This document shows positions 33,548 through 47,470 of a stretch of 64,000 bases of DNA, in pieces. The translations under genes and the position numbers were made by a program. The notes under the pieces were generated by a model. The model saw nothing but the letters and a program-made list of their open reading frames with translations, did not search any database and was not told the origin of the DNA. Each line of letters opens with the position of its first letter. The first letter of the stretch is position 1. Source of the stretch: Verrucomicrobiota bacterium (GTDB lineage: Bacteria > Verrucomicrobiota > Verrucomicrobiia > Limisphaerales > UBA11358); assembly GCA_028873125.1 (NCBI GenBank), contig JAGWMQ010000003.1, positions 15,295-79,294 on the forward strand, read 5' to 3'.

Positions 33548-35182
33548 TCACGCGGCGATCTTCATGTGGGTGATGCGAAAGCGGGCGCCTTTCGGATCGT
33601 TGGCCAGGCATTCGATTTCCCAGCCGTGGGCCAGGACGATTTGCTGCACCACGGCCAGCCCCAGTCCGGTCCCCTTTTGCTGGGTGGTGAAATAAGGTTT
33701 GAAAATTTCCTGGCGCCGTTCGGGCGGCACCCCCGGCCCGTCGTCGCGGACTTCCAGCGCCGCACCGGCGGCGCCGACCCGTTGCGTCAAAATCTGGATC
33801 CGGCCGTTTTGATCCACGGCTTGAATGGCGTTCAGCGCCAGGTTGAAGAGCGCCTGACGGAGCAGTTGTTCGTCCGCTTCCACGGTGACCGGTTCGCCCG
33901 CGACCTCCAGGCGGACCTTTTTCTCCTCGATGTCGTGCCCGAGCGTGCGGGCGATCTCCTGGGCGGCGGCGTTGAGCGACACGGCGGCGCGGCGGACCTC
34001 CCGCGGACGCGAGTAGTTGATGAATTCGTTGAGCTGGGCCGTCACCTTGTCGGCCTGGTCCACGATGGCGCGGGACCTGTCGCGAATCTCAGCCGGCGCG
34101 CCCGGCTCCTTGGACAGCATCTGGGCCATGCCGCGGATGATGTTGAGCGGGTTGCGGGTCTCGTGCGCCAGGCCGGCGGCCGCCAGGTTCATTTCCTTGA
34201 GGTGCGAATTCAGTTCGCTGGCGCGGACCAGGCGGATCTGGAGTTCCGACGTTTTGGAAACGTTGCGCCAGGCCAGGCCGATGCCGACGACGGCCAGGCT
34301 GGCGAAAAGGGTCACGACGCAGCGCAGCCAGAAATCATAAACGCAAACGGCCCGATAGTTGTCGGTGGACATGGTCATCACCAGGCCGCGCAGTTCCCGC
34401 TTCTTGACCAGGGCTTCGTACTGGCTTTCGTTCATCCAGCGCAGCCAGGGCGGGCGGCGGCGGCCAAAACCATGCGGGGGCTCGGGCACCGCGACTTCCG
34501 GAGGCGGCGGTCCGGGCGGACGCGGGCCTCTGTCAACGAAATGATTGCCGGGTTCGCCGCGCCGCATTTCGTTGGTCACCACGCGCCCGTCGGCGTTGGT
34601 GGCGCGGATGAGGACGTTGGAGGCCTCGGCGCCGCCGTGGCGGAACCTGAATTCGGGGCGTGGAAACTCCGGATGCTCTCCGCGGATGTTCGGGGAGAGA
34701 TCGCGCAAAGAGGGCAGGACGACCGTGGCGTTGGTCTCGCCGCTCGGCGTCACACTCACCCCCTCGATCACGTTGACAAAGGTGACGCTGTTGCTGCCCC
34801 AATGTTCGCCCGCCTGGAGGATGTCCTTTTGTTTGAAATCCACCGGGTGCCCGGCGGCCACCACCGGTTCGCCGGCGGTGTTGAGCAGGACGATGGACAG
34901 CAGTTCGCTGGGCCGGAGCAGTTCGTTGGTGCGCGCGTTGACCAGCTCGTTGAGCACCGGCTCGAGGCGGTCCTGCAGCACCGTGTCGCGGAAGCGCATG
35001 GCGCGGATGACGGCACTCAGGGTGTTGGCAATCTCCTGGGAACGGTTGCGCAGATCGGTCTTGGCCGCCCGTTCAATGCGGAAATGCTCCTCGACCTGCC
35101 AGCCGACGACGAGCAGCCAGACCCCCAACAGGAGTCCGTAAATCAATCGGTGGCGGCGGGCAGGTTCCATGGGTGATGTCAA
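33548..35182 (-). CDS. Sensor histidine kinase (NtrB/PilS-like core)
   Basis: Two TM segments around a periplasmic domain; HisKA LAHETRNPLNIIRG; HATPase NLALNAIQA, DDGPGV, GTGLGLAVV. Confidence 0.9.
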   Translation of the reverse strand: MTSPMEPARRHRLIYGLLLGVWLLVVGWQVEEHFRIERAAKTDLRNRSQEIANTLSAVIRAMRFRDTVLQDRLEPVLNELVNARTNELLRPSELLSIVLLNTAGEPVVAAGHPVDFKQKDILQAGEHWGSNSVTFVNVIEGVSVTPSGETNATVVLPSLRDLSPNIRGEHPEFPRPEFRFRHGGAEASNVLIRATNADGRVVTNEMRRGEPGNHFVDRGPRPPGPPPPEVAVPEPPHGFGRRRPPWLRWMNESQYEALVKKRELRGLVMTMSTDNYRAVCVYDFWLRCVVTLFASLAVVGIGLAWRNVSKTSELQIRLVRASELNSHLKEMNLAAAGLAHETRNPLNIIRGMAQMLSKEPGAPAEIRDRSRAIVDQADKVTAQLNEFINYSRPREVRRAAVSLNAAAQEIARTLGHDIEEKKVRLEVAGEPVTVEADEQLLRQALFNLALNAIQAVDQNGRIQILTQRVGAAGAALEVRDDGPGVPPERRQEIFKPYFTTQQKGTGLGLAVVQQIVLAHGWEIECLANDPKGARFRITHMKIAA

Positions 35183-35268: not shown

Positions 35269-36456
35269 TCACGGGGTTTGCTTGACGGGCACGTGTTCCA
35301 GGAACTGGTTCAGCTCCTGCTCCGAGAATGAATTGGTCACCATGGGACTCTGACGGCTGACGGAGCCGGTGAGCGCGGCCAGTTGCGCGGGCGCCTGCGC
35401 CACGTGCGGCGTCACGAAAATGAGCAACTCCGATTTGGAATCGCTCTTGGTGCTGGACTTGAAAAGGTTCCCCAGCAGCGGGATGTCGCCCAGGATCGGA
35501 ATTTTGCTGGCGTTGGAAGTCTTGTTGTTGGCCATCAAGCCGCCGATGACGACGGTCTGGCCGTCGGGTGTGACCACCACCGTGTCGGCGGAACGAACGT
35601 CCAGATAAGGCGCCGACACCCCGGTGGCGATCGTCTGCGACAAGGTGGCGTCCACCGAGGTGATCTGCGGTTGCAGGATCATCTCCACCAGATGGTCCTG
35701 GCCGATGTAGGGCGTCACGTTCAGGATGATTCCCACGTCGGTGTAGGCCACGTTGATGATGGGAATGGTCGAGCCGCCGGAGGTGTAGTAGGTCACGCCA
35801 TTGACCAGCGGCACGTCCTGACCAACGACGATCTGTGCCGGCTGGCCGTCGCGCGCCAGAACGGAGGGACGGGAGAGGATCTGCACCTTGCCGGCCTGGG
35901 CGATGGCGCGCAGCGTGGCCTGAAAATCGCTGCCCAGCACCTGGTAAAGCCCGCCCGCTCCCTGGCCCGCCGACAGGGTGGGAAAGGCCGAGGCCTGGCC
36001 GAGCACGTTGAAGTTGGTGGCCAAGGCGTTCAATCCGGACAGGCCGAAGATGTTGGCCACGTTGCCGGTCGTCGAATTGCCCAGGCCCTTGGTCCAGCCG
36101 CCCTCGATGCCGATGTCCGAGGAATTGTTGTGCTGGACCTCCAGAAAGACGCAGTTGAGCAGCACCTGCGGTTTGGGCATGTCCAGATTGTAAAGGATGT
36201 TGCTGATCTGCTGCGCCGTTTGCGAGTCGGTGACGACGACGATGTTGTGCGTGTCCGGGTCCACCGAAATCGTCGCGTTGCCCACCGTGCCGTTGTTGTT
36301 GTAGTTGCCGGTGCCGGTGCCCGCGGCGTTGTTGAACGCGCCAAACGGGCGGAAGGGAAAGCCGCGCACCTGGGCGTCAAGCCGCGCCCCGGCGCAGGCG
36401 AGCAGGATCAAGGCGGCGCCCAGGAGCGGTTTCCAGGAGGAATTGGTTGTTTTCAT
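35269..36456 (-). CDS. gspD: Secretin, C-terminal pore half (own signal peptide)
   Basis: Signal peptide MKTTNSSWKPLLGAALILLACAGA. Secretin domain: QVLLNCVFLEVQ, VLARDGQPAQIVVGQDVP, IPILGDIPLLGNLFK, ELLIFVTPHV. Confidence 0.85.
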   Translation of the reverse strand: MKTTNSSWKPLLGAALILLACAGARLDAQVRGFPFRPFGAFNNAAGTGTGNYNNNGTVGNATISVDPDTHNIVVVTDSQTAQQISNILYNLDMPKPQVLLNCVFLEVQHNNSSDIGIEGGWTKGLGNSTTGNVANIFGLSGLNALATNFNVLGQASAFPTLSAGQGAGGLYQVLGSDFQATLRAIAQAGKVQILSRPSVLARDGQPAQIVVGQDVPLVNGVTYYTSGGSTIPIINVAYTDVGIILNVTPYIGQDHLVEMILQPQITSVDATLSQTIATGVSAPYLDVRSADTVVVTPDGQTVVIGGLMANNKTSNASKIPILGDIPLLGNLFKSSTKSDSKSELLIFVTPHVAQAPAQLAALTGSVSRQSPMVTNSFSEQELNQFLEHVPVKQTP

Positions 36457-36496
36457 GATGTGCCTTTTGTTGTCTGGTGATGGAATAAAATCCGGG

Positions 36497-37765
36497 TCAA
36501 AATGTCCGGCCCGCGCCGGTCCGTCCCCGCGTATTTGATCCGCCGAAGCCGGTGGTGGAAGTGCCGCTGCCGATGGTCGTGGCGTTTTGGACCTCCCGCT
36601 CCTGCAACGCGCTGTTCTGCGTGGAGGAAGCCGCGCCGCCGCGGCCGGTGGTCGTGCCGGTGCTCGGGAACAGGTTTTGCAGCACCTGCAGGGCCTGTTG
36701 CGGGTCGCCGTTGTTCAGATGAAACACAAAGGTCTTCTGGTCCCGCCCCGAGGGCACGTCCAGTTGTTCAATCATCCCGCTGATTTGTTCCATCAAATCC
36801 TTGGACGCCGTCACGATGACCGATTGCGTGCGCGGGTCGGCCACGGCCACGACCTGCGTCTGTTTTTGAACGGCGGGATTTTGGGCGCCGGTGGCCGCCT
36901 GCGCGGCCGCCATGCGCGCCAGAAATCCGCCCGGACCGCCGAAGCGGAAGGGCAGTTGCGGCTGATTGCCGCCGGTGGTGGCGCTCGGAAAAATCTGGCC
37001 CAATTCGTTGGCGATGTCGTTCGGGTTGGCGTATCTCAGCGCAAAGACGCGAATCTCCGTTTCGCCCTGGGAGCTGTTGTCAATCGCCTCAATGATCTGG
37101 GCCAGATGCCGGATGTTGGACTGGGTGTCGGTGATGACGATCGAATTGGCCGATTGGTTGGCCACGATCGTCGCCTGCGGCGAAACGAACGGCGACAAGT
37201 CGGTGGCCAGTTGCTTGGCGTCCACGTAATGGACCGGAATGATCTGCGTGACCATTTCGTCGTTCTTGGGAATCTGGCTGGGATTGCTCCCGATTTTGAC
37301 CGGGATGTCGTGGCTCTTCGCATCGCTCTTGCTCATGATGATCAGAGTCCGGCCGTCGCGAATCGCGGCGTAGCCGTTCTTGTTCAGCACCGAGTTGAGC
37401 AAATCCACCGCCTCGTCCCTCGTCACCGGCCTGTCGCTCCACACGTCCACCGTCCCATGCACCGGCGTCTCGAGCACGATGATGAACCCGGCGGCATCGC
37501 TGAGGTAATTCAGCACCATGTCCAGCGGCACCCCGCGAAAGTTCAAACGCAAGGCGTCAGGATTGCCTCCGGCCGGGGCGGCGGGCGAAGGCGCGTTGGT
37601 CGGGGCCGCCGCGACGGTTGCCGGCGCGGCCGGCGGCGGCTGGACCGGCCCATTGGTCGCGGCCACGACCGCCGGCGGCGGCGCAACGCCGTTCGTTTGC
37701 GCGAAGACGGTCCCGACGGCCAAAACCGCCGCGAACAATATGGTCAAGGTCGTTTTCATAATCAT
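36497..37765 (-). CDS. gspD: Secretin N-terminal half (N0/N1-N3-like ring domains only, own signal peptide)
   Basis: Signal peptide MIMKTTLTILFAAVLAVGTVFA. LNFRGVPLDMVLNYLSDAAGF (N0); IRVFALRYANPNDIANEL; VVAVADPRTQSVIVTASKDLMEQISGMIEQLD. Ends in a Gly/Thr-rich tail with no secretin domain. Confidence 0.8.
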   Translation of the reverse strand: MIMKTTLTILFAAVLAVGTVFAQTNGVAPPPAVVAATNGPVQPPPAAPATVAAAPTNAPSPAAPAGGNPDALRLNFRGVPLDMVLNYLSDAAGFIIVLETPVHGTVDVWSDRPVTRDEAVDLLNSVLNKNGYAAIRDGRTLIIMSKSDAKSHDIPVKIGSNPSQIPKNDEMVTQIIPVHYVDAKQLATDLSPFVSPQATIVANQSANSIVITDTQSNIRHLAQIIEAIDNSSQGETEIRVFALRYANPNDIANELGQIFPSATTGGNQPQLPFRFGGPGGFLARMAAAQAATGAQNPAVQKQTQVVAVADPRTQSVIVTASKDLMEQISGMIEQLDVPSGRDQKTFVFHLNNGDPQQALQVLQNLFPSTGTTTGRGGAASSTQNSALQEREVQNATTIGSGTSTTGFGGSNTRGRTGAGRTF

Positions 37766-38523
37766 GGTCCCGATTGCTTTTCCTGTTGCTGGCGCAACCG
37801 CATCAGCCGCTCCAGCACGTCGTTGGGCGCGCCGGAAGTTTCCGGCGTGTTGGTGGCCATCTCCGCGTCCTCCGTCGCTTCGGGCGGCGGCGCGAGGCCA
37901 TCCATCTCTCCGTTCTCCAAGCCCTCGGGCGGCGCGGCAAGATTGCCGCCCGCCACGGCCGCCGTCGGAATATTCCGGCCACCGGCGCGGTTTGAGCGGC
38001 GGACAGTTCCTCCGCCCGATTGGGCGGGGCCGGGAGTCTCCGAGTAGGCCGCCGGTTCCGTGGAAAGCACCCATTGGCCGCTGTCGTCACGCCGCAGTTG
38101 CGCCGACACCTTCAATACCAGGCGGTTGGTGCCGTCCAGCAACGTGGCGCAATCCGGCGCGATGGCGGCAACCTTGAATCCGGCGATTTCCCCGCCCGCC
38201 TGCAACACCTTGCGAAATTCCGGGCTGCTGCCGTTGAAAAAGGCGAAGTTGCCCTTGGCGTAACTCATCGTGCCCACCAGCGAAAAGGAATCCACCACCC
38301 GTGGCGCGCGCGCGGCCAGATGCGGCCGGCGGTTCTGATTGAAAATGTTCCGCTGGCGGATGATTTGGAACGCGGCAAAATCCGTCGCATTGGTCGTCTG
38401 CGCCGCCGTCGGAAACGCCGCCCACCACGCCGCGGCCAAGACCAGAAAGAACCCTCCGGTTCCGCCTGTCCGTCCCCGAGGAATTCGGGCCGGGAGTTTC
38501 AGTTGGGCTTTTTTCAAAATCAT
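37762..38523 (-). CDS. GspC/PilP-like secretin-interacting inner-membrane protein
   Basis: N-terminal TM FFLVLAAAWWAAF. HR-like beta domain: FSLVGTMSYAKGNFAFFNG...GGEIAGFKVAAIAPDCATLL. ATGA overlaps on both sides. Confidence 0.5.
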   Translation of the reverse strand: MILKKAQLKLPARIPRGRTGGTGGFFLVLAAAWWAAFPTAAQTTNATDFAAFQIIRQRNIFNQNRRPHLAARAPRVVDSFSLVGTMSYAKGNFAFFNGSSPEFRKVLQAGGEIAGFKVAAIAPDCATLLDGTNRLVLKVSAQLRRDDSGQWVLSTEPAAYSETPGPAQSGGGTVRRSNRAGGRNIPTAAVAGGNLAAPPEGLENGEMDGLAPPPEATEDAEMATNTPETSGAPNDVLERLMRLRQQQEKQSGP

Positions 38524-39053
38524 GGCGCGGCGGATTTGAGGGCCAGACGGCTGACTTGCAGGTCCAGCGTAAATTGTTGTCCGGTGCCGTCGTGGGCGTT
38601 GAGGTCCAGGGTGTCGAGCTTCAGCGCCATCGGGTCCTTCTCGATGTCGTATAGAAAGCGGCTCACCGCGCCGAGGTCGCCGGAGGCTTCCACCCGGCAG
38701 GCCAGGGTCATGTAATTGGTCGCCTCCGTGTTCCATTGCGGCGTGATGCCGGTGACGCTCACGCCGCTGTCGCGCGACCAGCGGTCGAAGGCGCCGAGCA
38801 CCTGTTGTTCGGCCAGGGAGGTATTGGCCGGAAGCGTGTTGGTGCGCATGGAGTCCCAATGACTGCGCAAGCCGGCTTCGCGTTGCAGCAACAGCGCCCC
38901 ATCATGCACCTGCCGCCGCAGTTCGGCGATCTGCGCCTGGCGCGTCTTCCACCAGCCGGCCAGCGGCTCGAAGACCAGCCGGTCGGCGAAGAAGAGGGCG
39001 ATGACCGAGAGGGTCACTGCAATCAGAAGTTTTTCGCGGTTGTTAATTTTCAT
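38520..39053 (-). CDS. GspM/PilO-like assembly protein
   Basis: TM LLIAVTLSVIALFF, then a coiled coil and a ferredoxin-like periplasmic domain. Sits after the GspL-like gene. Confidence 0.5.
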   Translation of the reverse strand: MKINNREKLLIAVTLSVIALFFADRLVFEPLAGWWKTRQAQIAELRRQVHDGALLLQREAGLRSHWDSMRTNTLPANTSLAEQQVLGAFDRWSRDSGVSVTGITPQWNTEATNYMTLACRVEASGDLGAVSRFLYDIEKDPMALKLDTLDLNAHDGTGQQFTLDLQVSRLALKSAAP

Positions 39054-40500
39054 CGCCGCCTCCGTTGCCCCACTGAAAATCAAAGGAAAATTGCATGGGC
39101 GCCTTGCCGCGGATCTGGTCCAGCTTGACGCCGCGGACACCCTCCGCCGCGCGGAGCCGGGCCAGCGTCTGGAGCAGGGCGGCGTTGTCGCTCGCCATCC
39201 CCGAGCAGGTCACCTGGTTCCCGTCGTGAATCTCCACCGTCCTGGCCGTCACGGCCCCGTCTTCGGGGAAGACCCGGGTCAGTTGCCGCAGGATGCTCAG
39301 GGCGCGGAATGAATGGTCGAACCACGGTTGGTATTGCTGGATTTGGTCCTGGACCGCCTCGAGTTGCCCCGCCCGGGCCGACATTCTTGTCCATTGCGAT
39401 TGCAGCCGCGACAATTGCCATTGCTGGAAGAGGAAAATCCCACCGGCAATCACCAGGACCGCCGCGGCGGCGGCGCCGGCGGACTGCAACTTGCCGGAGG
39501 AACACCGGGCGACGAGTTGTTCCAGAGGGGTCGGCTTGGGCGGCAGAAATTCAAACGCCGGCGGCTGCTCCATCAGGCGGCGCGCCACCAGGCTGAACGC
39601 CGCCGAGACCGGAGCCTCCGGCGGCAGTTGCGCGCCGAACTCGTTGGCGGCGTAAGTTGAGACCACTTCCACACCCAGGCTGGCCGGCTCGAAACGCAAT
39701 TCCATTTCGTCGGCCAGTTGACGCGCCAGATCGTCCGGCCCGAAGATGCGGACACGCCGGACCGCGGCGCGCAATTCGGCGGGCAACTGGCCCAGGGTGA
39801 TGCGCGTTTCGCGCGACAGGACGTCGGCCTGCAGCGCGCGCCGGCCGCCTTCCGTTTCCACGGCGCTCTCCAGGGCGCGCAGGGCCGCCACGCCGCCGCC
39901 ACAGGTGATTTGCAACGCCACGTGGCTTTCGCCAACCGCCAGCGCCAGCACGCCGTTGGACGTCTCCGCCGCCGGCGGCTGCAAGGCGGCGACGCCGAGG
40001 GAGAAGCCGACCGGCTTGAGCTTCGCCGCAGCCAGGACTTTTTCGAGCGCGGCGACGTGCCCGGCGGGAATGGCCACCAGCGTCGCGTGCTGTTTGCCCT
40101 CGGACAAGGCGCAGCGCGAGTCGGCCAGCCGCAGCGTCGCCACGTCGCAGGGAAAACCGCGTTCCGCCTCCAACTGCAGAAGGCTGGCGGCGTCCGCCGC
40201 CTCCAGCCGCGGCAGTTCGGCGCCGAGCGTCAGCGCCCATTTAAGCGGGAGGGCGACCACGCAGCGGCGTTCGCGGACACCCGCGGCGTCCAGGTGGTTG
40301 CGGATCTCGCGCCCGACCAGCTCCGGCGCCGCCGTCAACGGGTCAAGCGCGAGGGCGGCCGAGAAGGACTGCCGGCATTGCAGCGCTCCGTTGGCGCGCC
40401 GGAGCACCGCGCCCTGCAGCCGGCCGCCGTCCAGCGCCAATCCCAGCAGGCTGGTCAGCCGCTTCCGTTTCGCAAAACTGAGTTTCAATATTTTTTTCAT
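39043..40500 (-). CDS. GspL-like protein (PilM actin-like cytoplasmic domain fused to TM and PilN-like periplasmic domain)
   Basis: N-terminal PilM-like region (LLGLALDGGRLQGAVL..., VAIPAGHVAALEKVLAAAKLKP). TM AAAAAVLVIAGGIFLF. Coiled coil and C-terminal domain. Confidence 0.6.
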   Translation of the reverse strand: MKKILKLSFAKRKRLTSLLGLALDGGRLQGAVLRRANGALQCRQSFSAALALDPLTAAPELVGREIRNHLDAAGVRERRCVVALPLKWALTLGAELPRLEAADAASLLQLEAERGFPCDVATLRLADSRCALSEGKQHATLVAIPAGHVAALEKVLAAAKLKPVGFSLGVAALQPPAAETSNGVLALAVGESHVALQITCGGGVAALRALESAVETEGGRRALQADVLSRETRITLGQLPAELRAAVRRVRIFGPDDLARQLADEMELRFEPASLGVEVVSTYAANEFGAQLPPEAPVSAAFSLVARRLMEQPPAFEFLPPKPTPLEQLVARCSSGKLQSAGAAAAAVLVIAGGIFLFQQWQLSRLQSQWTRMSARAGQLEAVQDQIQQYQPWFDHSFRALSILRQLTRVFPEDGAVTARTVEIHDGNQVTCSGMASDNAALLQTLARLRAAEGVRGVKLDQIRGKAPMQFSFDFQWGNGGGDEN

Positions 40501-42014
40501 TCTGTCGTGAGGCCGCCGGTTTTCGCCACCCAGGTTTCGCGGACCTTTTCCCCGAGCGCCCAACCCAGACGGGACAGGTCCTGGCGATAGATGATTTTGG
40601 GCGCGCCGTCGCTCGTGTCAAAAATGAACTTCACGCGCCGGTAACCGCGCCCGTAGGGACCGACGGCGGCGATGTCCGCGGTGAACTGGAAGCTGCGCGT
40701 GGTGATGTAATCGCCCCGCGCCAGCGCCTGCACGACCGGACTGGTGTTGCCCAGCGCATCAACGATCCAGGCGATGGAGGCCAGGTTGTCGGGATTTTGT
40801 TCGCGGTAGGTGATCATTTGCTGCGCGGCCGTCTGGGCGGTGCTCTGGTCCATGCCCAGCCCCATGAACAACGCCGTCAGCACCGGGACGCCGGCGGTGT
40901 TGATGTTCACGCGGCCGTAGTAGTAGGCGACGTTGGTGGCGCAGGTGACGTCGTCAATGATTTCACCGAACTCGGTCGAGTTCATCCCGCTGGCCAGGTA
41001 AAACTGCAGCAGATTAGAGTAGGTGGTTCCGCCGCCCGGACCGCCGCCTCGGGCTTGAAGCTGGTTCAGGATCTGGCTGGCGCGCGAGTCCAGGCGCGCC
41101 TCCAGCAACGGGCGCAATTCGGCGGGATCGTTCACATTGGTGAGCGAGGAGCCGTCGTGATGAAAATTCGGCTCGCGGCTATAAACGGTGGTGTAGTCGA
41201 ACAGGCCGGAATCCACCTGGCCGGTGCCGTTCAAATCTTGTTCGTTGGCGTCGAGGACGCCGTTGCGGTTGAGGTCGTCGCCCACGAGCAAATCCATCGT
41301 GGCGCCATAAACCAGCCGCAGTTCGTCCACGGTTTCAAACGGCGCGTTTTTGTCCTGGTAGCCCAGCGGCGCGTAATTCATCGAATACAGTCCCAGACCG
41401 TTGGTGTCGCGCCAGTCGGCGATCGCCTCGGCAAAATCCGTCGTCATGTCGGGCAAATAGGAGAGAACATTGGTGTCGGCGGTGTTCAAATTCAACTTGG
41501 AGGCCTCGTCAATCAGGCCGAAATACGGTTCCGACGACGGCGCGCCGGAGGGATCGCGGCCGATGATCCAGAAGTGGGCGTTTCCCACCGGCACGGCGGC
41601 GCATTCAAATTCGTCGTTGGTCGGCATGACGCCGTTGGTCGCATAGTTGGCCAGAATGTAGGCGACGTAACGCGCCGCGCCTTCGATGGCCTGTCCGGTC
41701 GCCAGGCCGGAGGCGCGGTTGTCCGAGGCGCGCAGTTCAAACGACATCGAGTGCGCGAAATAGAGGGCAATGCTGACCATGCCGAAGGCGACCAGCATGA
41801 CGATCACCAGCACCGAGCCGCGCTCGGACCCTTGGTTGCCCTTCGCCGGGCGGCGGTAACCGTTCGGAGGCCGGCGCCCGTCTGCTGTCCGGGGCTGTCG
41901 CGGCGATGACGCCGGGTTGCGGCGGCGGATGCCGATTTCACGGCATCGCACCCTGGCGCCAAACGGCTTGTGATTGCGAAGGCCCATTTTGTTGAAGACA
42001 CCGAAGAAATTCAT
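40497..42014 (-). CDS. gspK: Type II secretion minor pseudopilin GspK
   Basis: RGSVLVIVMLVAFGMVSIAL (no Glu5); SKLNLNTA; helix-hairpin-helix-like FETVDELRLVYG. The start is supported by an ATGA overlap with gspJ. Confidence 0.75.
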   Translation of the reverse strand: MNFFGVFNKMGLRNHKPFGARVRCREIGIRRRNPASSPRQPRTADGRRPPNGYRRPAKGNQGSERGSVLVIVMLVAFGMVSIALYFAHSMSFELRASDNRASGLATGQAIEGAARYVAYILANYATNGVMPTNDEFECAAVPVGNAHFWIIGRDPSGAPSSEPYFGLIDEASKLNLNTADTNVLSYLPDMTTDFAEAIADWRDTNGLGLYSMNYAPLGYQDKNAPFETVDELRLVYGATMDLLVGDDLNRNGVLDANEQDLNGTGQVDSGLFDYTTVYSREPNFHHDGSSLTNVNDPAELRPLLEARLDSRASQILNQLQARGGGPGGGTTYSNLLQFYLASGMNSTEFGEIIDDVTCATNVAYYYGRVNINTAGVPVLTALFMGLGMDQSTAQTAAQQMITYREQNPDNLASIAWIVDALGNTSPVVQALARGDYITTRSFQFTADIAAVGPYGRGYRRVKFIFDTSDGAPKIIYRQDLSRLGWALGEKVRETWVAKTGGLTTE

Positions 42015-42838
42015 GGCAAACCTCCGGTGACGCCGCCGCTGACGCTGGCGCTGCCGGACACGGTTGCGTTGGAGAGCGATTGCGAATCAATCGGCACCAG
42101 CATTTCGATGGGCGAGGCGCTGTTTCCGGCCAGTTGGATCTCCACGCGCACCGCCGTCGGCAGATTGGTCTCGCTCGAGGTCGGATCGCTGGTGTCCCAG
42201 GTGTCAAGCCATTGCGTGCCGTCGAAGCACGAGAACTGGATGCTCTGGACGCCGCCCAGCAGCCATTGATCCTCCACGTCGGGCGTGGCGGTGCTCAAGA
42301 GATTTCGGGTGACGCTGCGGACCAGGTCCAGGCCTTGCGCCGTGCGGTCGGACGGGGTCTGCAGTTCGTAGGTGACCCTTTGAATGTCGCCCCAGGGCCG
42401 GCTGGGATCGGAACTGAGCGCGCCGGTGGCCGTGAACATTTCAATGGCCACGGGCCGGCTGATGCCCTGGCTGGTCAGGTTGCCCACCCGGAAATCGCCG
42501 GACAGGATTTTGTCGGTGCCGTTGGTGGGGGTCACCGCGCATTCCAGGTCGCGGCGGAGGACGGCCAGCGCCTGGTCCACCGGCGTTGCCGCATCCACCG
42601 CGTCTTGCGTGGACTCCTGCAAATGCAGCGCGGTGAAGAAGGCGGCGCTTACGGCGGCCAGGACGATGGCGGCCACCGCCACCGCCAGAATCAATTCCAA
42701 CAACGTGAAGGCGTCGCCCGTTGACCCCTGCCGCTTGCCGATGGGCCGGAAGGCCAGGGACGCGTCCGGCCTTCCGAGGGGCCATCGCCCGTCGGAAACC
42801 GACAATCTCAAATTGGCCAAGGGCAGTTTCATCATGGC
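42011..42838 (-). CDS. gspJ: Type II secretion minor pseudopilin GspJ-like
   Basis: Prepilin-type N-terminal segment FTLLELILAVAVAAIVL; GspJ-like size and position in the operon. Confidence 0.65.
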   Translation of the reverse strand, partial: AMMKLPLANLRLSVSDGRWPLGRPDASLAFRPIGKRQGSTGDAFTLLELILAVAVAAIVLAAVSAAFFTALHLQESTQDAVDAATPVDQALAVLRRDLECAVTPTNGTDKILSGDFRVGNLTSQGISRPVAIEMFTATGALSSDPSRPWGDIQRVTYELQTPSDRTAQGLDLVRSVTRNLLSTATPDVEDQWLLGGVQSIQFSCFDGTQWLDTWDTSDPTSSETNLPTAVRVEIQLAGNSASPIEMLVPIDSQSLSNATVSGSASVSGGVTGGLP

Positions 42839-43308
42839 GATCCGGCGGTGGTGTTGAGCGTCTGCGAATCCGCCAGCGTGCTCATTTGCACGGAATAGTT
42901 GATGCCTTGGATCGAAAAGGACACCTGGGCGGTGAGTTGCCGCATCAGGGGATCCTCCGGCCAGTCCAGGCTGGTCAGCGCCCAGCGGAATTGCCGCCCG
43001 CCGTCGCTGATCGTTCCGTTTTGTGTTCCCACGTTCCAATTGGTCGTCACAATGCTTTGGTTGAGCACCTCGTCGGCGACGCGCGCCGCCTGGCCCTTGC
43101 GGGCGGCGACTTCGCCGGCCATGGCGGCGGTGTGCAGCGCCTCGACGGCTGCGGGAATGACGATGGCCAGCAACAGCAGTGCCGCCAAAACCTCCACCAG
43201 TGTGAAGGCAGAAAAGTGACCTGCGACACATGGCGGGTGGCAGGCATTCCTGCCGCGTGTCACTCGCCACTTGTCCCCGGTCACTTTACTGGCTGTTCCG
43301 AATTTCAT
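42832..43308 (-). CDS. gspI: Type II secretion minor pseudopilin GspI-like
   Basis: FTLVEVLAALLLLAIVI prepilin segment; small size. An alternative GTG start lies at 43284. Confidence 0.65.
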   Translation of the reverse strand: MKFGTASKVTGDKWRVTRGRNACHPPCVAGHFSAFTLVEVLAALLLLAIVIPAAVEALHTAAMAGEVAARKGQAARVADEVLNQSIVTTNWNVGTQNGTISDGGRQFRWALTSLDWPEDPLMRQLTAQVSFSIQGINYSVQMSTLADSQTLNTTAGSP

Positions 43309-43804
43309 AGCTCATGCGGTTGCGCGATTCGGCCAGCCACAGGACGCCGCCGGTGGAATCGGTCAGGCGCAACGTCTGCGGGCTGCTCTCATCAATCGAG
43401 CCGTCGGGCAGAAAACGGATGGCCGGCAGGCGGTCGAACGTCGTGGTGGACGAACTGCTGTCCATCACGGCGATCTGGACATTGTCATCCAGGGTCACCG
43501 TTTCGGCTTTTGGATCGCCGCTCTGTGGAGGGCTTTCCTCCTGCAGGCCGCACGCGTTTTGCCTGGCGTCCACCCAGAGCACGATGTTCACGCCCTCGGA
43601 AACCGCCCGGCTCTGCCCGGCATCCGTCAGCGCCAGCAACTCCCGCGCCTGGGAATCCAGGGTGCGTCCGCGGAAGAAATTCGCCAGCGCCGGCGCGACC
43701 AGCGCGGCCATGACGATCAGCAGCGCCATTACCAGGATCAGTTCGATCAAGGTGAAGGCGCGCGCGCATGATGTGCCGCTGTGGGTGGATTCGAGCCACG
43801 TCAT
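43286..43804 (-). CDS. gspH: Type II secretion minor pseudopilin GspH-like
   Basis: FTLIELILVMALLIVMAAL prepilin segment. The ATG at 43804 forms an ATGA overlap with the gspG stop. An alternative ATG lies at 43819. Confidence 0.65.
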   Translation of the reverse strand: MTWLESTHSGTSCARAFTLIELILVMALLIVMAALVAPALANFFRGRTLDSQARELLALTDAGQSRAVSEGVNIVLWVDARQNACGLQEESPPQSGDPKAETVTLDDNVQIAVMDSSSSTTTFDRLPAIRFLPDGSIDESSPQTLRLTDSTGGVLWLAESRNRMSYEIRNSQ

Positions 43805-44328
43805 TTGCTCATGGTCCAATTGCCGATGTCATCGGCCGTGCCCGGCTGGCCGTCCGGTCCGGCGGACGAAACATCGAAGGAACTCGGGTTGTGTTTGCCG
43901 GGACAGACGTAAACGTAGGGATTGCCCCACGGATCGGCAGGCACCGTGTCGTTGTCCAGGTACGGGCCATGCCAGTTCTGGGCGTTGTTGCCGCCGGGTT
44001 GCTGGATCAGGTCGTTCAACGACTTGGGATAATAGCCCATGTCCACTTCATACGCGCCCAAGGCCGTTTTGAAGGTGGAAATCTGCGTCGTCGCCGCGGT
44101 GATGCGGGCGCGCTGGGAAGTGCCGGTGAACTTGGGCAGCACGATGGCGGCCAGCGTGGCCAGGATGACCAGCACCAACAGCAATTCCACGAGGGTGAAG
44201 CCTCGGGATTTCCCGCGGGCCGATGGCCGATGGCCAGGGCCTCCGCCACGCGGCGTCTCGCCTCCACCGATTGGCAATTGGCGATTGGCGATTGGGGGTC
44301 CGTTTTTCGACGCGGCTTTTATTTTCAT
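43801..44328 (-). CDS. gspG: Type II secretion major pseudopilin GspG
   Basis: RGFTLVELLLVLVILATLAAIVLP; T2SS-G signature GYYP...DPWGNPYVY. The leader is unusually long if the ATG at 44328 is used. Confidence 0.85.
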   Translation of the reverse strand: MKIKAASKNGPPIANRQLPIGGGETPRGGGPGHRPSARGKSRGFTLVELLLVLVILATLAAIVLPKFTGTSQRARITAATTQISTFKTALGAYEVDMGYYPKSLNDLIQQPGGNNAQNWHGPYLDNDTVPADPWGNPYVYVCPGKHNPSSFDVSSAGPDGQPGTADDIGNWTMSK

Positions 44329-44340
44329 GAATTTTCCGGG

Positions 44341-45585
44341 TTATTTGATGTATTGTTGCAGGGTGAAAATCGGCAGCAACATGCCGATGAAAATGGTGCC
44401 GATGAAGCCGGCAATCATGAACAGCATGAGCGGCTCGGCAAAGGCCACCGCCGTTTTCAACTCGCGGTCCAAATCGCCCTCGGTGACGGCGGCGATGCGC
44501 ACCAGTTCGCTGTCCAGCCGGCCGCTTTCCTCGGCCACGGAAATCATTTCCAGGACCGAGCCGGAAAACAGCCGCTTGCAATCCGCCAGGCTCTGGCCCA
44601 GCCGTCCGCCCTGCTGCACGCGCTCGATGGACTGCGACACGGCGTCCACCAGAATCTGGTTGCCGATGGATTTGCGCGCCACGTTCAGCCCCTGCACCAG
44701 CGGCACGCCGGCGCCCAGCAGGGTGCCGAGCATCCGGCAAAAGCGCGCCAGGGCAAATTGCGCCACCAGCCCTCCGACCAGCGGCGCTCGAAGCACCAGA
44801 CTTTCCCAAACGCGCCTGCCGGTCTCCGAAGTGAACCAGGCGCGCAGCAGGAATCCGGCGGCCACCAAGCCCGCCGCCACAAACAGGCCGTAGTTGCGCA
44901 CCACGTGACTTACGCCGATGATGAGTTGCGTGATCAACGGCAGCGCGCCGCCGAAGCCGGAGAAGAGTTTTTGAAAACGGGGGATGAAGAACACCAGCAG
45001 AAACGTCAGCACCCCCAGCGCCAGGGTCAGCAAGATGCACGGATACAACATGGCGCTCATCACCTTGGAACGCAGTTCCTTTTCCCGCGACTGGAAATCG
45101 GCGATTTGCGAGAGCACCACGTCCAGGAACCCGCCCGTCTCGCCCGCCTGCACCATGGCCACATAGACGCGCGGGAAAACCTCCGGCGATTTGGCCATCG
45201 CGTCGGCCAGCGACATGCCGTCCACCACCAGGTCGTGAATTTCCTTCCACTTGGCCGCGACCACCGGCGCCGCCGCTTCCCGGTAAAGAATCACCAGCGC
45301 CCGGCTCAGCGGCACCCCGGAGGCCAGCAGGGACGACAGCAACCGGGTGAAATTTTCCAGCGCCTTGCCGGACACCTTCTGCGGCTGGAGCGACAGGGAA
45401 AAACGCTCCGCGGCCGGCGCGGGGGGTTTTTGGACTCCCGCCGCGGCCTTTTTTTCAAACAGACCGACCGGGCGCAGGCCCAACGCCTCCATCTGGCGCA
45501 GCGCGTCGGGACGGCCCGGCGCATCCAACTGGCCTTCGGTGATGAGGCCGTCGGTCTTCAGTGCTCTGTATTGGAAGGTGGGCAT
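44341..45585 (-). CDS. gspF: Type II secretion inner-membrane platform protein GspF
   Basis: MPTFQYRALKTDG; two T2SF domains; 414 aa. Confidence 0.9.
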   Translation of the reverse strand: MPTFQYRALKTDGLITEGQLDAPGRPDALRQMEALGLRPVGLFEKKAAAGVQKPPAPAAERFSLSLQPQKVSGKALENFTRLLSSLLASGVPLSRALVILYREAAAPVVAAKWKEIHDLVVDGMSLADAMAKSPEVFPRVYVAMVQAGETGGFLDVVLSQIADFQSREKELRSKVMSAMLYPCILLTLALGVLTFLLVFFIPRFQKLFSGFGGALPLITQLIIGVSHVVRNYGLFVAAGLVAAGFLLRAWFTSETGRRVWESLVLRAPLVGGLVAQFALARFCRMLGTLLGAGVPLVQGLNVARKSIGNQILVDAVSQSIERVQQGGRLGQSLADCKRLFSGSVLEMISVAEESGRLDSELVRIAAVTEGDLDRELKTAVAFAEPLMLFMIAGFIGTIFIGMLLPIFTLQQYIK

Positions 45586-45588
45586 TCA

Positions 45589-45716
45589 GAAGTTCCAAGT
45601 TCCAAGTTCCAAGTCCCAAGTTCCAAGGAAAATCCAAGCTCCAAGTTCCAAGACTTGCCGATGCCAATTTGAATTTTGGAGCTTGGGGCTTCTTTGGAAC
45701 TTGGAACTTGGAATTT
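45589..45716 (-). repeat. ttccaag-periodic long imperfect hairpin, copy 2; fills the gspE|gspF intercistronic gap
   Basis: On the coding (minus) strand: aaaattccaagttccaagttccaaagaa ... ttggaacttggaacttggaacttctga-ATG. Same orientation relative to transcription as copy 1. Confidence 0.85.
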
Positions 45717-45721
45717 TCATT

Positions 45722-47470
45722 TCATCTCCCCAACGCGGCGCCGGTCGGCGCCAAGCTTGCCGTCGCATCCAGCGTTTCATTCCGGGTCACGCGCGCCACT
45801 TCCTTGGCGGTGGTCACGCTCAAGACTTCCTCGACGGTGGTGATGCCCAGCCGCACCAGCCGCCAGCCGTCTTCGGCCAGCGTCTTCATGCCGGCGCGGC
45901 GGGCGGCGTCGCGTATCTGGTCGGTCGAGGCGCTTTTCAGGATCAACCGCCGGATTTCATCGTCGCTGTCCATCCACTCGAAAATGGCGTGCCGGCCGAA
46001 GAATCCGGTGTTGCGGCACTCGCGGCAGCCGATCGAGCGGTAAATTGTCGCGTTGGCCGGCAGCCCCGCCTGCGCCTTGAAGGCCTGCGCCGTCGGCGAA
46101 TGGTCCGGCTGTTTGCAATGTCCGCACAGCACGCGCACCAGGCGTTGTGCCAGCACGGCTTCGAGGGAGGAGGCGACCAGATACGGCTCCACGCCCATGT
46201 CCACCAGCCGGGTGAGGGCGCCGGGCGCGTCGTTGGTGTGGAGCGTGGAAAAGACCAGGTGGCCGGTCAGGGAGGCCTGCACGGCGATCTGCGCCGTCTC
46301 GGCGTCGCGGATTTCGCCGATGAGCACCACGTCCGGGTCGTGGCGCAGGATCGAGCGCAACCCGCGCGCGAAGGTCAGGCCGGATTTTTCATTGACCTGG
46401 ATCTGGTTGACGCCCTTGAGTTGATACTCCACCGGGTCTTCGATGGTGATGATTTTGCGAACCGAGTCGTTGATGGCGTTGAGCGCGGTGTAAAGCGTCG
46501 AGGTCTTGCCGCTGCCGGTCGGGCCGGTGACCAGGATGATGCCGTGCGGCAGCTCGAGGACGCGCTGGAAACAATCCAGTTCGCGCCGGTCCATGTCCAG
46601 TTCCTTCATGCCGCGCAGGGTGGCGTTCTGCCGCAGCAACCGCATCACCACCGCCTCGCCATGCAGCATCGGTATCACCGAAACGCGGATGTCCACCTCG
46701 GCGTCCTCGATGCGCACCTTGATACGGCCGTCCTGGGGCAGGCGTTTTTCGGCGATGTTGAGGTGGCTCAAAATTTTCACGCGCGAGACGATGGCCGGCT
46801 GGAATTGTTTCAATTGCCCCGGCACCGGCACGTCCTGCAACACGCCGTCAATCCGGTAGCGGATGCGGAATTCGTCCTCGAAGGGCTCCAGGTGGATGTC
46901 CGAGGCGCGCAACTCGATGGCGTCCTTGAGGACCTGGTTGACGAAACGGATGATGGAGGCCTCGTCTTCGGCGGCGGAGTCGAGATTGGTGTCCTCGGCG
47001 TTTTCGTCCACGAACTGAAAGGACTTGTCCTCCTCCAGCGTGCCGATGGTGTCGGCGCCCACGCCCAGGCGTTTTTTCATTTCCCGTTGAATCGCTTCGC
47101 TGGAGGCGAGGACGGGCTTGAGGTTCAAGCCCGTCAACGTTTTCAGGGCGTCCAACCCCTGGGTGGCGAAGAGGCGGCTGGTGGCCACTTCCACCGTGCC
47201 GTTCAGTCGCCGAAGGGGCAGCAATTCTTCCTTGAGAAGGATACGGGCGGGAAAAAGGGAGAGAAGCTGACGGTCCGGCTCCACGTCGTCCAGCGTCGTG
47301 TAGGCCAGATCATACTCGCCGGCCAGCCAGCGCAGCACGTCCTCCTCGCCTCGCAATACGAGCTTGGAGGCGGCCAGGGCTTCGGCGTCGGCCGCCGAAA
47401 GTTGCCGGGCCGCGATCATGCGTTCCAGCAACGGCCGCGGCGGGGTTTCCTGGACGTCAGACGGACTCAT
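45722..47470 (-). CDS. gspE: Type II secretion ATPase GspE
   Basis: N-terminal MshEN-like domain; Walker A GPTGSGKTST; Asp/His boxes; tetracysteine CGHC...CRECRNTG. Confidence 0.9.
   Translation of the reverse strand: MSPSDVQETPPRPLLERMIAARQLSAADAEALAASKLVLRGEEDVLRWLAGEYDLAYTTLDDVEPDRQLLSLFPARILLKEELLPLRRLNGTVEVATSRLFATQGLDALKTLTGLNLKPVLASSEAIQREMKKRLGVGADTIGTLEEDKSFQFVDENAEDTNLDSAAEDEASIIRFVNQVLKDAIELRASDIHLEPFEDEFRIRYRIDGVLQDVPVPGQLKQFQPAIVSRVKILSHLNIAEKRLPQDGRIKVRIEDAEVDIRVSVIPMLHGEAVVMRLLRQNATLRGMKELDMDRRELDCFQRVLELPHGIILVTGPTGSGKTSTLYTALNAINDSVRKIITIEDPVEYQLKGVNQIQVNEKSGLTFARGLRSILRHDPDVVLIGEIRDAETAQIAVQASLTGHLVFSTLHTNDAPGALTRLVDMGVEPYLVASSLEAVLAQRLVRVLCGHCKQPDHSPTAQAFKAQAGLPANATIYRSIGCRECRNTGFFGRHAIFEWMDSDDEIRRLILKSASTDQIRDAARRAGMKTLAEDGWRLVRLGITTVEEVLSVTTAKEVARVTRNETLDATASLAPTGAALGR

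Follow-up and report, generated by a model that had tools for sequence, protein, structure and literature searches.

GspD, the secretin of type II secretion systems (T2SS), forms an outer-membrane channel of approximately 15 subunits through which folded proteins are secreted. In the window considered here, a stretch of 64,000 nucleotides from a member of the Verrucomicrobiota (Limisphaerales, UBA11358; assembly GCA_028873125.1, contig JAGWMQ010000003.1, positions 15,295 to 79,294), the T2SS secretin gene is split into two adjacent open reading frames (ORFs) on the minus strand, gspD-N (36497-37765) followed by gspD-C (35269-36456). Their products are referred to below as the N-half and the C-half. 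Every secretin structure matched in our PDB searches (T2SS, type IV pili, type III secretion system (T3SS), Tad and phage) is a single chain, and no second secretin copy is present within the 64-kb window. The features of the two genes are listed in the order of transcription; structural elements were predicted with AlphaFold2 (AF2; confidence given as the predicted local distance difference test, pLDDT), and conservation is expressed as the majority-residue frequency across 78 paired sequences, that is 77 related loci and the window.

36497..37765, minus strand: gspD-N, 422 amino acids (aa), starting MIMKTT; signal peptide, Pro/Ala linker, N0, N1, N2, half of N3 and Ser/Thr/Gly tail
37700..37765, minus strand: predicted signal peptide of the N-half (aa 1-22), by heuristic cleaved between ...GTVFA and QTNG; a pattern of MKT... 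ending Ala-Gln at the site is found in 32 homologues
37316..37552, minus strand: N0 domain (aa 72-150; PF21305; AF2 pLDDT 74-82; majority-residue frequency 0.80)
37070..37255, minus strand: N1 domain (aa 171-232; beta-alpha-beta-beta-alpha by AF2; conservation 0.84)
36752..37060, minus strand: N2 domain (aa 236-338; best PF03958 stretch 239-339), with a Gly-rich insertion (aa 261-302) in the alpha1/beta2 loop
36668..36733, minus strand: N3a, beta1-alpha1 of N3 (aa 345-366, TFVFHLNNGDPQQALQVLQNLF), aligning to V. cholerae GspD 241-261 and to the unsplit relative P0288 up to 387
36500..36667, minus strand: Ser/Thr/Gly-rich tail of the N-half (aa 367-422, 56 aa; pLDDT < 50), with a terminal Phe
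36457..36496, minus strand: intergenic spacer of 40 nt, GC 0.45 versus 0.626 in the window, with AAAAGG 6 nt 5' of the ATG
35269..36456, minus strand: gspD-C, 395 aa; signal peptide, Gly-rich leader, second half of N3, secretin pore domain and C-terminal helix
36373..36456, minus strand: predicted second signal peptide, that of the C-half (aa 1-28, MKTTNSSWKPLLGAALILLACAGARLDA followed by QVR), conserved in 36 homologues and at 77/77 loci
36307..36372, minus strand: Gly/Phe/Asn-rich leader of the C-half (aa 29-50; pLDDT < 50), with GGFGGFGG repeats in relatives
36277..36303, minus strand: motif YNNNGTVGN (aa 52-60) just ahead of beta2, conservation 0.81
36175..36276, minus strand: N3b, beta2-beta3-alpha2 of N3 (aa 61-94, ATISVDPDTHNIVVVTDSQTAQQISNILYNLDMP), from the 5wln alignment and the 5wq8 match
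35398..35907, minus strand: secretin pore domain (PF00263, aa 184-353)

A longer form of the N-half ORF, extending to 38074, is mechanical: 32 homologues begin at the MKT which corresponds to 37765/37759. The spacer reads ...aaaaggcacatcATG, with aaaagg lying 6 nt ahead of the ATG of the C-half.

Profile searches distribute the parts of one secretin over the two products. Pfam detects GspD N0 (PF21305, E = 5.6e-12) and Secretin_N (PF03958, E = 9.7e-31) in the N-half, and Secretin (PF00263, E = 8e-47) at aa 184-353 of the C-half. The N-half covers positions 1-294 of the 600-position NCBIfam GspD model (TIGR02517) and the C-half positions 287-600; they are therefore collinear pieces of one GspD. 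Each half by itself (192.1 bits for the N-half, 224.1 bits for the C-half) misses the equivalog cut-off of 351.35 bits. The C-half also matches solved GspD/XcpQ structures (E = 1.6e-40), and these locate the cut. The last ordered stretch of the N-half, residues 345-364 (KTFVFHLNNGDPQQALQVLQN), is aligned with beta1-alpha1 of N3 in V. cholerae GspD (5wq8, residues 241-261). Residues 45-354 of the C-half match 5wq8 chain residues 268-587, and this match opens in the stretch 267-319 (...VMIAAHADTNSLVLTAPQDIMNAMLEVIGQLD), which is the loop-beta2-beta3-alpha2 part of N3. With P. aeruginosa XcpQ (5wln, from residue 273) the C-half sequence ISVDPDTHNIVVVTDSQTAQQISNILYNLD was aligned residue by residue to N3 beta2-beta3-alpha2. 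The alignments to 5wq8 and 5wln together place the cut in the gene in the alpha1/beta2 loop of the N3 ring domain.

The AF2 models are in keeping with this division. In the N-half alone N0, N1 and N2 are folded, followed by a helix of medium confidence (355-365) and a disordered tail. The elements of N1 are strand 171-177, helix 183-193, strands 199-203 and 208-214 and helix 215-232; those of N2 are strand 236-242, helix 248-258, a low-confidence loop, strands 306-310 and 315-321 and helix 322-335. Helix 355-365 (pLDDT 50-66) is all that is predicted of N3a, which is not modelled as a folded unit. In the C-half alone N3b is predicted as strands 61-65 and 72-76 and helix 78-92 (pLDDT approximately 77), packed ahead of the pore/beta-barrel module. 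N2 also has an insertion of about 40 residues at the equivalent place, its own alpha1/beta2 loop; long insertions are evidently tolerated there.

The N2 insertion itself (36860-36985, aa 261-302, ...PFRFGGPGGFLARMAAAQAA...) contains the invariant residues F275, G276, G277 and G279 and is modelled by AF2 with a short helix.

A preliminary description of this locus had reported the two ORFs and a 40-nt AT-richer spacer with aaaagg 6 nt before the ATG, and the coordinates, spacer GC content (0.45) and spacer letters agree with it. It had also read the N-half as a signal peptide, N0, further N-domains, half an N-domain and a Gly/Thr-rich tail; for the domains, Pfam, the 5wq8 alignment and AF2 return the same. 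The C-half had been described as the other half of that domain plus a complete secretin pore domain, as is borne out by PF00263 and the 5wq8/5wln alignments, and the break that it had put inside the last N-domain can now be assigned, by the same two structures, to the N3 alpha1/beta2 loop.

The split is not peculiar to this genome. Each half was searched against 5.8 billion proteins, and the best 120 matches to each were half-length without exception, C-half matches measuring 334-439 aa and N-half matches 297-498 aa; apart from one partial match of 100% to the N-half, identities ranged from 54 to 74%, and the named matches were from Verrucomicrobia metagenome-assembled genomes (MAGs). No fused form occurred among these 240 best matches. 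A locus scan over one genome per GTDB species returned 535 genomes with a relative, and the best 80 loci, all from Verrucomicrobiota (Limisphaerales, Pedosphaera and subdivision 3), were examined. Three of these were truncated by the end of a contig, leaving 77 complete loci, each from a different species-level genome. At all 77 an N-half, stop codon, spacer, ATG, signal peptide and C-half follow in order. Because each of these 77 checkable loci has the same split, the arrangement is, on comparative grounds, an old and maintained gene fission and not a broken gene. Separate gene calls on a 1.38-Mb contig of one relative give the same operon, including the kinase downstream. A much more distant C-half, P0296 (37% identity; locus L082), is likewise preceded by an N-half, in this case of 568 aa ending ...VFVYKVAYGDPQAIASMLQSMF and a 58-residue Ser/Asn tail, and opens with a signal peptide of its own (MRNDASKHPIRNAALALAAFCLATTTFAA followed by QA).

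The spacer is 10-42 nt long at 74 of the 77 loci, 66 nt at one, and 805 and 809 nt at the remaining two. The N-half ends in TAA (36 loci), TGA (36) or TAG (5), and relative to it the C-half lies in frame 0, +1 or +2 at 23, 25 and 29 loci, respectively. Among the 75 spacers shorter than 70 nt the mean GC content is 0.40, compared with 0.61 for the loci, and the commonest ending is aaattATG. No slippery or structured motif is common to the spacers. The occurrence of the C-half in all three relative frames excludes a shared frameshift and programmed recoding, and the agreement of 77 independent assemblies excludes an assembly error. The preliminary description had argued against a recent frameshift pseudogene and had suggested that relatives be compared for the split; the 77/77 split loci, with their three frames, three stop codons and conserved second signal peptide, and the lack of a fused ORF in the best 120 matches per half uphold its argument. 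Its description of the spacer as resembling a ribosome-binding site holds for the AAAAGG found here, but not as a conserved feature, a Shine-Dalgarno-like 4-mer being present in 18 of 75 spacers of the relatives.

The two long spacers deserve separate mention. At L075 (3055-3859), and at the equivalent position in L077, the halves lie about 805-809 nt apart, and the insert is conserved between these two species. It contains nested long inverted repeats with arms of 67 nt (536 nt apart), 49 nt (183 nt apart) and 27 nt (55 nt apart); the insert of approximately 805 nt in L075 gave no Rfam match and no convincing ORF. The N-half of L075 (1393-3054, 553 aa), a more distant lineage, has one extra Secretin_N-type domain and hence four full N-type repeats ahead of the half-N3, which means that N-modules within the split clade differ in how many ring domains they have.

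The protein identical to part of the N-half of the window is P0121 (KGR98_08510), whose locus-tag prefix is shared by P0015 (KGR98_06035), a C-half-type protein 60% identical to the C-half of the window. The MAG from which these two derive may hold a second split-secretin copy, or may be mixed.

In the N-terminus of the C-half a charged n-region and a hydrophobic core come before a site of the A-x-A type (RLDA before QVR), where cleavage is predicted after A28. The C-halves of all 77 relatives and of the window have a basic n-region ahead of a hydrophobic core whose mean Kyte-Doolittle value over 10 residues is 1.8 or more. A cleavage site could be placed in 77 sequences (76 loci and the window); of these, 74 have Ala at position -1 and 75 have L, A, I, V or T at position -3, and Gln follows the site; among the relatives the most frequent predicted length of this signal peptide is 26 residues. 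The preliminary description was therefore right in giving the C-half its own signal peptide, which by heuristics is kept at 77/77 loci, but the end is probably A28 rather than A24. Liposecretins, the lipidated, self-piloting secretins such as HxcQ or BfpB, have a signal peptide which ends at a conserved lipobox Cys, and the letters LLAC in the second signal peptide invited the same reading. This was rejected: a strict lipobox is found in 3/78 sequences, a PROSITE-like one in 6/78 and any Cys in 43/78, so that the gspD-C family, in contrast to the liposecretins, has no conserved lipobox. Since the lipobox is not conserved and the site is Ala-Gln, the second signal peptide is predicted to be of the signal peptidase I type and not that of a lipoprotein.

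The first and second signal peptides both begin with MKT and end with Ala before a Gln. One might speculate that the second arose by duplication of the first; the sequences are short.

If the residues flanking the cut were debris, they would not be expected to match the conservation of intact domains. The values are 0.74 for N3a, 0.74 for N3b, 0.73 and 0.74 for the first and second halves of N2, and 0.74 for the secretin core, compared with 0.45-0.48 for the signal peptides and 0.31 for the Pro/Ala linker. D354, P355, L362 and F366 of N3a are invariant. As measured by residue conservation, both N3 half-domains are shown to be under purifying selection equal to that on the intact N2 domain and the secretin core. 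The two halves are co-inherited: their pairwise distances are correlated (r = 0.62; none of 500 permutations as high), and the distances of N3b track those of N0-N2 on the other chain (r = 0.77) more than those of its own pore domain (r = 0.60). The correlation between the halves is in large part phylogenetic, and counts as weak support.

The low-complexity ends at the cut are also constrained. In 65 relatives the tail of the N-half is 51-60 aa long, and in 55 of 78 sequences it closes with F or Y. In the main clade the tail includes a QNSALQxR motif (aa 383-390, 36596-36619) in which L387 and R390 are invariant, while on the other side of the cut Y52, N55, G56 and G59 of YNNNGTVGN are invariant in 36 sequences. 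Both motifs are absent from the unsplit relatives. C-terminal aromatic residues of this sort resemble the signals recognized by the beta-barrel assembly machinery (BAM) or by PDZ domains.

The tail of the distant L082 N-half ends in an aromatic residue as well (...GMSF).

The origin of the cut is suggested by unsplit relatives. With the C-half, an exhaustive HMMER search covered 1.84 billion proteins that represent clusters at 50% identity. The best matches, approximately 45 clusters at 197 bits or more and 40-64% identity, are all of 500 aa or less and are matched from the N-terminus; below 197 bits proteins of 529-1181 aa appear, matched through their C-terminal part at 33-46% identity. Five unsplit proteins (P0286-P0289 and P0293) have the same series of N-domains and, between ...LNxLF of N3 alpha1 and ...GQxxVVAxxDTNSLLV of beta2, a loop of 85-130 aa rich in Gly, Ser, Thr and Asn. 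In BLASTP comparisons with P0288 (826 aa; locus L083) N-half residues 74-366 match 88-387 and C-half residues 67-389 match 480-782, with the low-complexity loop between them. The operon in L083 has the same gene order, with a single gspD where the two half-genes sit. The named relatives of P0288 are from Phycisphaerae, Tepidisphaeraceae and Humisphaera borealis, and all are unsplit (757-1352 aa). The tail of the N-half matches the first part, and the leader of the C-half the second part, of the N3 loop of these unsplit relatives. The Phycisphaerae (Planctomycetota) proteins, e.g. P0288 and P0420 of Humisphaera borealis, are the nearest unsplit relatives (34-46% identity) in the same operon position; unlike the split pair, each is a single ORF without internal stop, start or signal peptide.

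The same search drew attention to several giant proteins (P0310, P0355, P0369, P0377, P0378 and P0389) of 3,400-4,700 aa, and several more of 1,500-1,800 aa. Their secretin domain, at the extreme C-terminus, is 34-38% identical to the C-half, and it is unusual for a secretin to be fused to so large an N-terminal region.

We consider it likely that gspD underwent an ancient fission, fixed in a large clade of the Verrucomicrobiota, and that the resulting secretin has two chains which complete the N3 domain in trans. The ancestral Planctomycetes-Verrucomicrobia-Chlamydiae (PVC)-type GspD would already have had the two parts of N3 joined by a long, disordered Gly/Ser/Thr/Asn-rich alpha1/beta2 loop. 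In the ancestor of the verrucomicrobial clade this loop would have been interrupted by a stop codon and a short spacer rich in AT, beyond which a new start (ATG) and a Sec signal peptide would have arisen, the Ser/Thr-rich tail and the GGFGG-rich leader being remnants of the loop. Each chain would reach the periplasm by its own export signal, which signal peptidase I would then remove. The C-half, with its half-N3 and secretin domain, would form the outer-membrane pore, and the N-half (N0-N1-N2 and half-N3) the periplasmic vestibule that contacts the inner-membrane platform. Beta1-alpha1 of the N-half would complete the beta2-beta3-alpha2 of a C-half, in the same protomer or a neighbouring one, to produce one N3 fold with a non-covalent joint. 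The two chains would be expected in a stoichiometry of 1:1, and some functional advantage may attach to the arrangement. Since the two half-domains match intact domains in conservation, a plausible reading of the sequences, and the most economical one, is that N3 is reconstituted in trans.

Several points weigh against it. Inter-chain mutual information with average product correction, calculated over the 78 pairs (effective number 36.6), is not enriched between N3a and N3b, and the highest-scoring pairs owe their rank to rare variants in columns that are otherwise nearly invariant. QNSALQxR and YNNNGTVG are not conserved in L082, the most distant of the split lineages. All of the relatives are MAGs, and the signal peptides were judged by sequence heuristics alone. 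Lastly, the clade-specific motifs and the constant length of the tail hint at a docking of the two chains that is other than, or additional to, completion of a fold.

In the main alternative the split is functional but N3 is not rebuilt. Here the C-half alone would be a short secretin consisting of the pore and a vestigial sub-domain, and the N-half an independent periplasmic ring or adaptor docking by way of its tail with the terminal Phe, or via partners resembling GspC or GspL, perhaps transiently. The tail, held to 51-60 aa and ending in F or Y even in L082, the clade-specific motifs on both sides of the cut, the missing covariation between N3a and N3b and the two species with halves 805-809 nt apart would all suit such an arrangement, and rhizobial RhcC1 has been proposed as a linker of this kind (PMC3459982). 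Yet N3a and N3b retain the canonical beta-alpha and beta-beta-alpha patterns and the conservation of intact N domains, it is not obvious how a beta-alpha fragment of 22 residues could fold by itself, and the distances of N3b follow N0-N2 of the other chain above those of its own pore domain. On balance we judge this alternative to be unlikely.

The remaining explanations fare far worse. A recent pseudogene (one gspD broken by a nonsense mutation or frameshift), or an error of sequencing or assembly within 36440-36520, would account for the bare fact of an interrupted domain and nothing more. It is scarcely credible given that 77 independent assemblies, each from a different species, are all split, as is a lineage at 37% identity; that three relative frames and three stop codons occur, with a conserved signal peptide past the cut; that the halves are constrained like intact domains; and that no fused form occurs in the best 120 matches per half. 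Programmed recoding, by read-through or ribosomal frameshifting, to a single full-length GspD could draw on the 10-42 nt spacers and the strict adjacency at most loci, but it can be discounted almost entirely since the relative frame (23/25/29) and the stop codon vary, the AT-rich spacers have no common slippery or structured motif, a hydrophobic signal peptide amid a periplasmic loop would be deleterious, and approximately 805 nt are inserted between the halves at two loci.

The two-gene GspD can be compared with three sets of known proteins. The canonical single-chain GspDs (V. cholerae 5wq8, E. coli 5wq7 and P. aeruginosa XcpQ 5wln) have the same N0-N1-N2-N3-secretin series and the same operon partners (GspE/F/H/J/K/L/M), and TIGR02517 is covered end to end by the split pair; the latter differs in consisting of two signal-peptide-bearing chains, with the cut inside N3 and low-complexity ends at the cut.

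Secretins distributed over two genes have been described in the rhizobial T3SS (RhcC1/RhcC2) and in T3SS-2 of Pseudomonas syringae (HrcIIC1/C2), where their significance is unknown (PMC3574062, PMC3973906). In these, too, the role of the outer-membrane secretin is divided between an N-terminal gene and a pore gene. According to Abby and Rocha (2012) the rhizobial split came about by partial homologous replacement and not by fission: RhcC1 is the leftover N-domain of the original T3SS secretin, proposed to act as a linker, and RhcC2 a Tad-type secretin with a BON domain which was acquired later (PMC3459982). The rhizobial genes lie apart in the T3SS cluster and the halves are of different origin, whereas the split gspD genes are adjacent in a T2SS (40 nt apart here), their products are collinear with one GspD, and the cut passes through a folded domain. 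The best family of the C-half is GspD (224 bits), and no BON domain was detected in it with the Pfam and NCBIfam profiles. The split GspD is a true fission, in adjacent genes of a T2SS, and differs in kind from the rhizobial split secretin.

An ancient and fixed fission is also known for the inner-membrane platform gene of type IV filaments, giving TadB and TadC (PMC6668835). That event parts two complete, repeated T2SSF domains of an inner-membrane protein; the one in gspD cuts through a single domain, in a protein that is exported, and called for a new signal peptide. A literature search for a split GspD or a two-gene secretin in Verrucomicrobia, the coverage of which leaves out many subscription journals, found none, and a full-text search for 'split secretin' returned only the rhizobial rhcC1/rhcC2 and their counterparts in P. 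syringae T3SS-2.

A natural two-chain GspD throughout a clade would mean that a secretin can do without a covalent link from the N-module to the pore module, and would offer a natural experiment on the folding and packing of the N3 constriction ring, on the positioning of the N-module relative to the pore and on the assembly of secretins across the periplasm. It would further indicate that a fission within a domain can become fixed, for which a pre-existing long disordered loop and a newly evolved signal peptide would suffice. A further possibility, to which we give rather little credence, is that N3 is a non-covalent latch and the N-module ring a separate part that is exchanged, or docks reversibly, on a standing outer-membrane pore through complementation of the fold. 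Were this so, association of chains and not movement within a chain could control the assembly or gating of the T2SS, and the locus would provide a natural split-domain system in the periplasm, with docking helped by the clade-specific motifs and the tail of fixed length ending in Phe. There is also a practical consequence. Automated annotation misses the two-gene GspD: databases enter the halves separately and without remark, under the names 'general secretion pathway protein D', 'secretin N-terminal domain-containing protein' or 'hypothetical protein'. As each half falls short of the equivalog cut-off for GspD, tools for T2SS detection which require a single secretin hit may misjudge these Verrucomicrobia.

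Upstream of gspD-N lies the remainder of the T2SS operon, identified with Pfam:

37762..47470, minus strand: upstream T2SS operon, which ends in the two secretin half-genes
45722..47470, minus strand: GspE
44341..45585, minus strand: GspF
43286..43819, minus strand: GspH-like pseudopilin
42011..43270, minus strand: GspJ-like pseudopilin
40497..42014, minus strand: GspK-like pseudopilin
39043..40563, minus strand: PilM/N (GspL)-like
38520..39140, minus strand: GspM-like
37762..38859, minus strand: ORF of unknown function, whose stop codon overlaps the start of gspD-N (ATGA)

Pfam returned no family for the last of these (37762-38460) or for its counterpart in L083. The order of the T2SS genes is the same in the split relatives L081 and L082 and in the unsplit, Phycisphaerae-type L083. 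Directly downstream of gspD-C in the window is a histidine kinase gene (33548-35182, minus strand). A kinase and a sigma-54-dependent response regulator follow the C-half in L081 (11276-15543) and in L082 (7230-10343; 37% identity), and this two-component system is absent downstream of the unsplit gspD of L083. A few kb past the split secretin of L081 (15807-20837) are a WXG100-family gene and a gene for a 1,304-aa FtsK/SpoIIIE ATPase, a pairing typical of type VII-like secretion and unexpected in the Verrucomicrobiota.

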